Origin: Naegleria gruberi
Taxonomy: Eukaryota
Length of the DNA stretch: 1,304 nt
Assembly: GCA_000004985.1 (NCBI GenBank)
Contig: GG739450.1
Strand: one strand, 5' to 3'
Position 1 is the first letter of the stretch; every line of letters begins with the position of its first letter. A program made the translations under genes and the position numbers. The notes under the pieces are model-generated. The model was not told the origin of the DNA and did not search any database. It saw only the letters and a program-made list of their open reading frames with translations. Of this stretch, positions 1 to 1,304 are shown piece by piece.

Positions 1-966
1 CAACAAGAAATATTTTCAGATGATGTTTGTTTTGAAATAATTTCCATGCTCGATGATTCGTGGTTTATTTTGAATAATTGTTCCTTGATTTCAAAACAAT
101 TCTTTAATGTGATCAAGGAACGTTCAAAACTTGTTATTCAATTTAAACAAAAATTTACAGAGAAACGAGTTGAATTATTCATGAAAAGTCAGTTTAGGAA
201 TAGAATTATTAATCTTAAAGTTTTTAGATATTTGCTTGACTCTTTTGAAAAACTCAAATTCATTAGTGATATGAAACGATTAACGTCACTTGATATTTCT
301 TTCAATCAAATTGGTGTACAAGGGGTCAAATTCATTAGTGGAATGAAACAATTAACATCACTTGATATTTCTTTCAATCAAGCTAGTGATGAAGGTGCTA
401 AATACATAAGTGAAATGAAACAATTAACATCACTTGGTATATCTAAGAATCTAATTGGTGATGAAGGAGCTAAATATATTAGTGAAATGAAACAATTAAC
501 ATCACTTAATTTATATTACAATGAAATTTGCGATGAAGGAGCTAAATATATTAGTGAAATGGAGCAATTGACATCACTTGATATTTCTTCTAATCTAATT
601 GATGTAGAGGGAGTCAAATTCATTAAGGAAATGAAACAATTAACATCACTTAATATATATTACAATGGAATTGGTGTAGAAGGAGCCAAATACATAAGCG
701 AAATGAAACAACTAACATCACTTAATATTACTAACAATGAAATTGGTGATGAAGGAGCTAAATACATTAGTGAAATGAAACAATTAATATCACTTATTAT
801 ATCTAGGAATCAAATTGGTGATGAAGGTGCTAAGTACATTTGTGAAATGGAGCAATTGACATCACTTAACATTTCTGGCAATGAAATTGGTGATGAAGGA
901 GCCAAATACATTAGTGATATGAAACAACTAACATCACTTGATATTTCTTTTCAATCAAGTTGGTGA
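1..966 (+). CDS. F-box-like / leucine-rich-repeat protein (RI/GALA-like 24-aa LRRs). Probably 5'-partial, and the 3' end is truncated by a frameshift as sequenced.
   Basis: Frame 1 has no stop from base 1 to the TGA at 964-966. The first in-window ATG is at 46, as in the ORF track. Translated, residues 1-40 read 'QQEIFSDDVCFEIISMLDDSWFILNNCSLISKQFFNVI'. By eye this fits an F-box-like consensus of the form LPxEILxxIFSxLDxxDLLxxxLVCKxW. From about residue 75 onward there are ten 24-aa repeats, 'MKQLTSLDISFNQIGDEGAKYISE', with the LxxLxLxxNxIGxxGAxxL spacing typical of RI-type and GALA-type LRRs. Codon usage is consistently AT-rich at third positions. The domain call comes from visual motif matching, not from an HMM search. 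Confidence 0.78.
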   Translation, partial: QQEIFSDDVCFEIISMLDDSWFILNNCSLISKQFFNVIKERSKLVIQFKQKFTEKRVELFMKSQFRNRIINLKVFRYLLDSFEKLKFISDMKRLTSLDISFNQIGVQGVKFISGMKQLTSLDISFNQASDEGAKYISEMKQLTSLGISKNLIGDEGAKYISEMKQLTSLNLYYNEICDEGAKYISEMEQLTSLDISSNLIDVEGVKFIKEMKQLTSLNIYYNGIGVEGAKYISEMKQLTSLNITNNEIGDEGAKYISEMKQLISLIISRNQIGDEGAKYICEMEQLTSLNISGNEIGDEGAKYISDMKQLTSLDISFQSSW

Positions 967-1012
967 TGAAGGTGCTAAATACATTAGTGAAATGACACCA
1001 CTAGGAAAATAA
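253..1012 (+). repeat. Tandem 72-bp direct repeat array of about 10.3 units, in frame, encoding the 24-aa LRR units.
   Basis: Units begin with 'atgaaacaattaacatcactt' at 271, 343, 415, 487, 559, 631, 703, 775, 847 and 919. A degenerate final partial unit starts at 992. Spacing is exactly 72 nt, except that the last full unit is 73 nt because of an extra T. Many units share exact blocks, for example 'ggtgatgaaggagctaaatacattagtgaaatgaaacaattaacatcactt'. Confidence 0.95.
953..1012 (+). pseudogene. Frameshifted C-terminal remnant of the LRR gene. It lies in the +1 frame relative to 46..966 and encodes 'NQVGDEGAKYISEMTPLGK*'.
   Basis: After the T4 run at 948-951 (T3 in every other unit), the sequence 'caagttggtgatgaaggtgctaaatacattagtgaaatgaca' continues the repeat almost exactly, but out of frame with the annotated CDS. 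Read in the shifted frame it gives another canonical half-unit and ends at TAA 1010-1012, exactly where the DNA repeat degenerates. Confidence 0.6.
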
Positions 1013-1062
1013 GCTGCGTTGGGTGTTGGAAAACAAAAAAACACCATTTATAAACCAAGTGG

Positions 1063-1302
1063 GTGGTAAATATCTGCTCCTATTCTTCATCCAAAGGTGT
1101 GCACCATTTTCGTCGATGTGAAATGGATGTTAAAGTCGTAAATGGTGACACAAGACCCAAAATTACAAATGGATATTACGAATGCTTGAAACGTTTGACG
1201 AATTCTTTCAGCATCAAGTATTCGAAAGGAAGTCAACTCTATTCAAAATTAAATACAACATTCAAAAAGAAATTGCCAATCCCAAAGTACACTACAATAT
1301 GA
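1063..1302 (+). CDS. Hypothetical small basic protein. It is 79 aa from GTG 1063, or 59 aa from the in-frame ATG at 1123-1125. Its reality is doubtful.
   Basis: The ORF track gives this ORF. Position 1063 is GTG, not ATG. I see no convincing Shine-Dalgarno motif upstream of either start, and I recognise no motif in the translation. The composition (about 35% GC) differs from the upstream gene. The region could equally be non-coding or a UTR. Confidence 0.22.
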   Translation: MVNICSYSSSKGVHHFRRCEMDVKVVNGDTRPKITNGYYECLKRLTNSFSIKYSKGSQLYSKLNTTFKKKLPIPKYTTI

Positions 1303-1304
1303 AA

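Follow-up and report, generated by a model that had tools for sequence, protein, structure and literature searches.

The window, that is the whole stretch of 1,304 nucleotides of Naegleria gruberi DNA analysed here, carries on its plus strand a long reading frame, frame 1, which is open at base 1 and runs through base 963. No start codon context lies within the window and the frame is open from its first base, so the start of the gene has to be located upstream. Bases 1-120 translate in this frame as QQEIFSDDVCFEIISMLDDSWFILNNCSLISKQFFNVIKE, and the peptide that an earlier note on this DNA had read at bases 7-120 is found there exactly. The range 1-270, which that note had described as an F-box-like motif fused to a leucine-rich repeat (LRR) array, consists of a predicted diverged F-box (about 13-123) and two irregular linker repeats (about 127-270); the latter comprise a strand (residues 44-48), a helix (54-61), a second strand (69-74) and a second helix (82-89) in the AlphaFold2 (AF2) model and join the F-box to the regular array. 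In the paralogues P0001, P0002, P0003, P0007, P0008, P0015, and P0017 a basic low-complexity leader of 10-50 residues (MSKRNRQDFENH..., KKKK runs) precedes the F-box, and it might act as a nuclear localisation signal. Of this leader, only the residues QQEI fall within the window. All features are listed in Table 1.

Table 1. Features along the window, with position in bases, strand, and the evidence for each assignment.
Feature	Position	Strand	Evidence
Leader end, last four codons (QQEI)	1..12	+	Open frame; paralogues share the QQEIFSDD motif
Diverged F-box (predicted), residues F5-R41	13..123	+	PF12937 alignment, family evidence, AF2 helices
Linker, two irregular LRR-like strand-helix units	127..270	+	AF2 secondary structure; conserved among paralogues
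Nine complete 72-bp LRR_6 units and first 11 codons of a tenth, frame 1	271..951	+	Unit listing, Tandem Repeats Finder (TRF), Pfam, AF2
Run of four T, one-base insertion, frame shift within the tenth unit	948..951	+	Comparison between units
Two in-frame stops TGA TGA; frame-1 ORF ends ...DISFQSSW, stop	964..969	+	
Frame-2 rest of the tenth unit and C-terminal tail (NQVGDEGAKYISEMTPLGK, stop at 1010-1012), presumed original gene end	953..1012	+	
3' flank, no feature identified	1013..1304	.	ORF, Pfam, Rfam, tRNA scans

The LRR array is strictly periodic from base 271 onwards, and each of its 72-bp units encodes MKQLTSLxIsxNxIGDEGAKYISE. Tandem Repeats Finder reports a period of 72 with 10.3 copies and 80% matches over bases 256-995, and Pfam LRR_6 matches the window protein with an E-value of 2.3e-56. 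With a repeat length of exactly 24 residues the array is of the LRR_6 type and not of the cysteine-containing (CC) type of approximately 26 residues, which is the usual one in FBXL proteins of animals and plants.

The N-terminal domain is far less conspicuous when the window sequence is taken alone. The profile search suggested by the earlier note succeeded for LRR_6, gave a sub-threshold score for F-box-like and no match for F-box: PF12937 (F-box-like, curated cut-off 24.3 bits) reaches 13.1-13.5 bits (E 0.06-0.09) with window residues 7-40 aligned on profile positions 6-37, and PF00646 (F-box, cut-off 20.5 bits) does not match the window N-terminus at E <= 1. Two hallmark positions of the F-box are replaced, namely the Leu-Pro pair at the start of the first helix (H1), which is Phe5-Ser6 in the window, and the Trp of the third helix (H3), which is Phe34 (SKQF for CKxW). 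Since the window alone stays below the Pfam threshold, F-box homology was instead asked of the homologous family.

This family was gathered by database searches with the first 124 residues of the window (F-box, linker, and first LRR units) and with the whole protein, and the best matches of both searches are Naegleria gruberi proteins. The N-terminal domain is common to 21 retrieved proteins, the identity of which to the window ranges from 97% (P0002, over 62 residues) down to 30%; P0002 is 74% identical over the aligned part. All close relatives that bear names are nuclear-genome proteins of N. gruberi NEG-M encoded on scaffolds of 0.16-1.5 Mb, e.g., P0002, P0008, P0001, P0004, P0007, and P0003, as well as XP_002678454 and XP_002670683. 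These paralogues share leader, F-box, linker, and the array of 24-residue LRRs with the window gene, with F-box identities of 77-97% and aligned LRRs up to 74% identical. They differ from it in that repeat number varies and none is identical, and no protein identical to that of the window is present in the protein database, which includes the N. gruberi proteome; the window gene would therefore be an N. gruberi paralogue that has escaped annotation, or else belong to a close relative. Further relatives come from metagenome or Logan contigs with a GC content of 30-33%, to which the window, with 29% in its coding part and 35% in its flank, is similar; these values are compatible with a Naegleria origin. 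One of these contigs (L001, ENA ERZ929261 contig k127_410811) is 81% identical at the nucleotide level to window bases 10-545, which suggests that its sample contained a related heterolobosean, and also carries a gene for gelsolin, a eukaryotic cytoskeletal protein. The Naegleria-like contigs of this metagenome sample, PRJEB11402 (L001, L003), have family members beside genes for gelsolin, an amino-acid transporter, and a fatty-acid hydroxylase. By contents and relatives the window gene is thus a member of a lineage-specific, expanded Naegleria family. Orthology of the window gene to any named FBXL was not found, and literature searches yielded no paper on a Naegleria F-box/LRR_6 family.

At the level of this family the F-box becomes recognizable. 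Among the 22 N-terminal segments including that of the window, 16 match PF12937 (best E 1.6e-6) and 12 match PF00646 (best E 5e-6), and other Pfam families occur in no more than three of them. Full-length P0019 scores 23.2 bits with PF00646, which is above the cut-off, and 24.2 bits with PF12937, just beneath it. A family profile was built from the alignment of the 62 N-terminal residues. Among 177,635 distinct PDB sequences it matches three only, FBXO44, FBXO42, and FBXW11, each at its own F-box and in the same register. In 1.84 billion proteins it has 134 matches at E <= 1e-3, 120 of which were not seeds, and these 120 contain F-box-like in 65 and F-box in 57 cases (E <= 1e-3), accompanied by partner domains such as FBA, FBA_1, FBA_3, plant F-box LRRs, and beta-propellers; in the two library matches that were inspected closely, Pfam F-box and profile match cover the same residues. 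Furthermore, hhalign aligns the family with 11 textbook F-boxes at a probability of 95.9% (E 5e-9) over 35 columns in register; any errors in the textbook sequences used could only reduce the score. In this alignment the Phe-Ser of the window falls on Leu-Pro and SKQ(W/F) on CKRW.

The paralogues also show how the hallmark positions vary. Most of them keep the Trp and a few the Pro: Phe-Pro is found in P0017, P0018, and P0019, and SKQW in most divergent paralogues. In the window, as in the paralogues nearest to it, both are replaced. The residues D8, E12, I13, C27, L29, S31, Q33, and K43 are each conserved in at least 90% of the paralogues, and the motif (F/I)(S/P)DD(V/I)CxEI(L/I)S...NC(S/A)L(I/V)SKQ(W/F)...KL followed by MKQLTSL-type repeats of 24 residues is present in the window. 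As judged from the profile searches and comparisons of the family, the N-terminal domain is very probably homologous to the F-box, if diverged from it. The F-box-like N-terminus proposed in the earlier note is therefore upheld by profile searches and hhalign for the family, although the score of the window itself is sub-threshold. The precomputed Pfam annotation of N. gruberi P0001-P0009 and others lists LRR families only (including LRR_FBXL15, PF25372) and no F-box, and the public names of the relatives are “predicted protein,” “hypothetical protein,” or “leucine rich repeat protein.” As the F-boxes of the closest paralogues are below the Pfam thresholds, the family appears to be under-annotated.

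The predicted structure is in line with this assignment. AF2, run with the family alignment on the 317 residues of frame 1, gave a model with a pLDDT of 87.7 and a pTM of 0.84, in which the helices H1 (7-15), H2 (20-30), and H3 (32-41) are followed by the strand at 44-48, two irregular strand-helix units, and a regular solenoid. The solenoid of the LRR array has pLDDT values above 90, and the first 40 residues with the three helices only 65-73; the same elements are obtained when the N-terminal 95 residues are modelled alone. The model thus has three predicted helices leading directly into the LRR solenoid, with moderate confidence in the region (residues 1-45) for which the earlier note had proposed a check for a three-helix bundle. 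In Foldseek the whole model finds the LRR domain of RipG4 with the lowest E-value (1.6e-15, 29% identity) and the LRR of LegL1 as second-best match (E 1.5e-11, TMt 0.79-0.80), while the top TM-scores across the whole query belong to FBXL2-SKP1 (0.72) and FBXL17-SKP1 (0.70-0.71). The isolated model of the 95 N-terminal residues has KDM2A/FBXL11, KDM2B/FBXL10, FBXL17, and FBXL3 as top matches without significant scores, and its resemblance to the fold of FBXL proteins can therefore be taken as suggestive only. Profile searches, profile-profile comparison, and predicted structure agree on the FBXL-type architecture that the earlier note had described, i.e., an F-box fused directly to LRRs. An N-terminal F-box that leads straight into an LRR solenoid is also found in the FBXL receptors SKP2, FBXL2, FBXL3, FBXL17, and KDM2A/B and in plant TIR1/COI1/D3. 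In contrast to these, the window has LRR_6 repeats of the RI/GALA-like kind in place of cysteine-containing ones, and an F-box with Phe-Ser for Leu-Pro and Phe for Trp.

An N-terminal F-box followed by 24-residue LRRs is also the architecture of the GALA/RipG type III effectors of Ralstonia solanacearum, and the earlier note had pointed out the likeness of the 24-residue units to GALA-LRRs. This likeness is borne out by RipG4 as best Foldseek match and by a sequence match to a GALA protein with an E-value of 4e-31, the own Pfam F-box of which is also weak (20 bits). The note had left two readings, depending on the origin of the DNA: an effector for host manipulation if it came from a prokaryote or a virus, and an ordinary member of an expanded F-box/LRR family if it came from an AT-rich eukaryote. 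According to the first, the window would encode a protein like the GALA/RipG or Legionella F-box effectors, secreted by a bacterium or made by a giant virus, that mimics a eukaryotic F-box/LRR adaptor in order to hijack host ubiquitination. Such an effector would be in keeping with the shared architecture and LRR type, and with the sequence matches to several LRR proteins of bacteria besides the GALA protein, but the bacterial matches cover the LRRs only, and the family profile has no significant match to the GALA F-box. A specific kinship between the F-box of the family and that of GALA was rejected with an hhalign probability of 0.4%. Moreover, the named proteins that closely share the N-terminal domain are all encoded in the N. 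gruberi nuclear genome, and the related metagenome contig carries the gelsolin gene. Searches with the N-terminal 95 residues through 185,579 genomes, one for each bacterial or archaeal species, and through the IMG/VR viral contigs gave no relative, and the window has no exact match in viral contigs (45-mer) or in prokaryotic genomes and JGI metagenomes (44-mer). A look-up of P0002 as an exact protein was empty as well. GALA/RipG proteins are bacterial and delivered by type III secretion, whereas the relatives of the window are eukaryotic, the closest being N. gruberi nuclear genes. Given the Naegleria relatives and the lack of any in these prokaryotic genomes and viral contigs, the ordinary reading was chosen and the effector reading does not apply; a bacterial or viral effector is effectively refuted and would be extremely improbable.

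Similar considerations hold for the LRR and F-box effectors of Legionella (LegL1, LegU1, AnkB), which bring eukaryote-like domains into amoeba-dwelling bacteria. The LRR of LegL1 resembles that of the window, as its Foldseek rank shows, but all these effectors are bacterial, unlike the window gene, and LegL1 has no F-box. The F-box of Legionella effectors is paired with ankyrin repeats or with nothing, and is not known to be paired with LRRs. Some proteins attributed to uncultured bacteria combine the same 24-residue LRR_6 arrays with eukaryote-like domains: P0106 has eight LRR_6 stretches and a BTB/POZ domain, and P0021, P0025, and P0038 have LRRs and GTPase domains of the Arf/Ras type. It is possible that these four are effectors or misbinned eukaryotic DNA. 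As the Naegleria family joins an F-box to the GALA-type LRR of 24 residues, it is a useful eukaryotic comparison for the origin of such effectors. It would be a long shot to regard this family, or its protist relatives, as the eukaryotic source from which bacteria associated with amoebae and plants acquired LRR effector modules by horizontal transfer, with Ralstonia GALA/RipG, Legionella LegL-type proteins, and the LRR-BTB proteins of uncultured bacteria as recipients; if it were so, the window would belong to the donor-type lineage.

The 3' end of the window gene is irregular. The T run at 948-951 is four bases long, one more than the three T of the equivalent units at 292-309 and 364-381 (pattern GATATTTCTTT(T)CAATCAA), and due to this extra T frame 1 ends at the TGA TGA of 964-969. 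The shift truncates the last repeat and removes the last 19 residues only. It is therefore possible that the window copy is a little shorter than the original or in decay, or that the extra T is just a sequencing error. If it were a decaying pseudogene with no function of its own, the one-base insertion and the premature stops would be explained, and so would the absence of an identical protein from a database that covers the N. gruberi proteome. On the other hand, 317 codons comprising the F-box and 9.5 repeats are intact with no other stop, the loss is confined to the terminal residues, the insertion sits in a homopolymer run as is typical for sequencing or assembly errors, and annotated paralogues likewise have tails that look out of frame. 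A pseudogene is hence rather doubtful, and we favor a gene that is intact in its F-box and nearly all of its array. As for the tails, P0003 ends with “...IITIVLVMKEPSS” like an out-of-frame LRR unit (compare “KLVMKEPNTLV” in frame 2 of the window), P0032 with “...LWNETVDQTF” (compare “NETINIT” in frame 3 of the window), and P0002 with “...GDNPNW,” a tail resembling an out-of-frame LRR translation. It seems that the arrays in this family are recurrently truncated by frame shifts at the 3' end, or else that assembly or gene models are faulty. The region behind the gene, 1013-1304, is probably 3' UTR or intergenic. Its only ORF (1063-1302, 79 codons, GTG start) was considered as a second gene and rejected, having neither a Pfam match nor a homolog; the minus strand has no long open frame, and scans gave no Rfam family and no tRNA.

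Taken together, the gene is most likely a Naegleria-family F-box/LRR gene that codes for a receptor by which the SCF (Skp1-Cul1-Rbx1) ligase of the amoeba itself recognizes its substrates, and the second reading left by the earlier note, an AT-rich eukaryote with an expanded F-box/LRR family, fits the named close relatives, which are all from N. gruberi. The protein would begin with a short basic leader, followed by the diverged F-box of approximately 40 residues, the two irregular repeats, and a solenoid of ten RI/GALA-type LRRs of 24 residues. By analogy with known SCF ligases, Skp1 would be the docking site of the F-box and its bridge to Cul1-Rbx1, and the protein to be ubiquitinated would be held by the solenoid on its concave face. 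Skp1 and Cul1 are assumed to be present in Naegleria. A function that depends on Skp1 is somewhat favored, and the LRRs would present the putative substrates. What speaks against a receptor of this kind is the sub-threshold F-box-like score of the window (13 bits, E 0.06-0.09), the substitution of the two most conserved F-box positions, LRRs that are of the LRR_6 and not of the cysteine-containing type, and the frame shift, as the copy may be a pseudogene.

The domain could also descend from an F-box and have lost Skp1 binding, so that the protein would serve as an LRR scaffold or binding protein independently of any ligase, with helices that do no more than cap the solenoid. The replacement of both Pro and Trp in the window and its closest paralogues would agree with such a loss, as would the low Pfam score and the moderate model confidence for the domain. 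However, the exchanges of Leu and Trp for Phe are conservative, many paralogues keep the Trp and some the Pro, and among otherwise divergent paralogues the F-box is better conserved than any other part, which points to selection on a shared partner. A loss of Skp1 binding is therefore unlikely, and we prefer the SCF substrate receptor. There is nothing unexpected in such a gene for the AT-rich genome of a protist. The Naegleria proteins now listed as “predicted” or “leucine rich repeat” can be re-annotated as F-box/LRR proteins and probable SCF substrate receptors, which, though a small gain in practice, enlarges the recognizable repertoire of ubiquitin-ligase adaptors in a deep-branching eukaryote.
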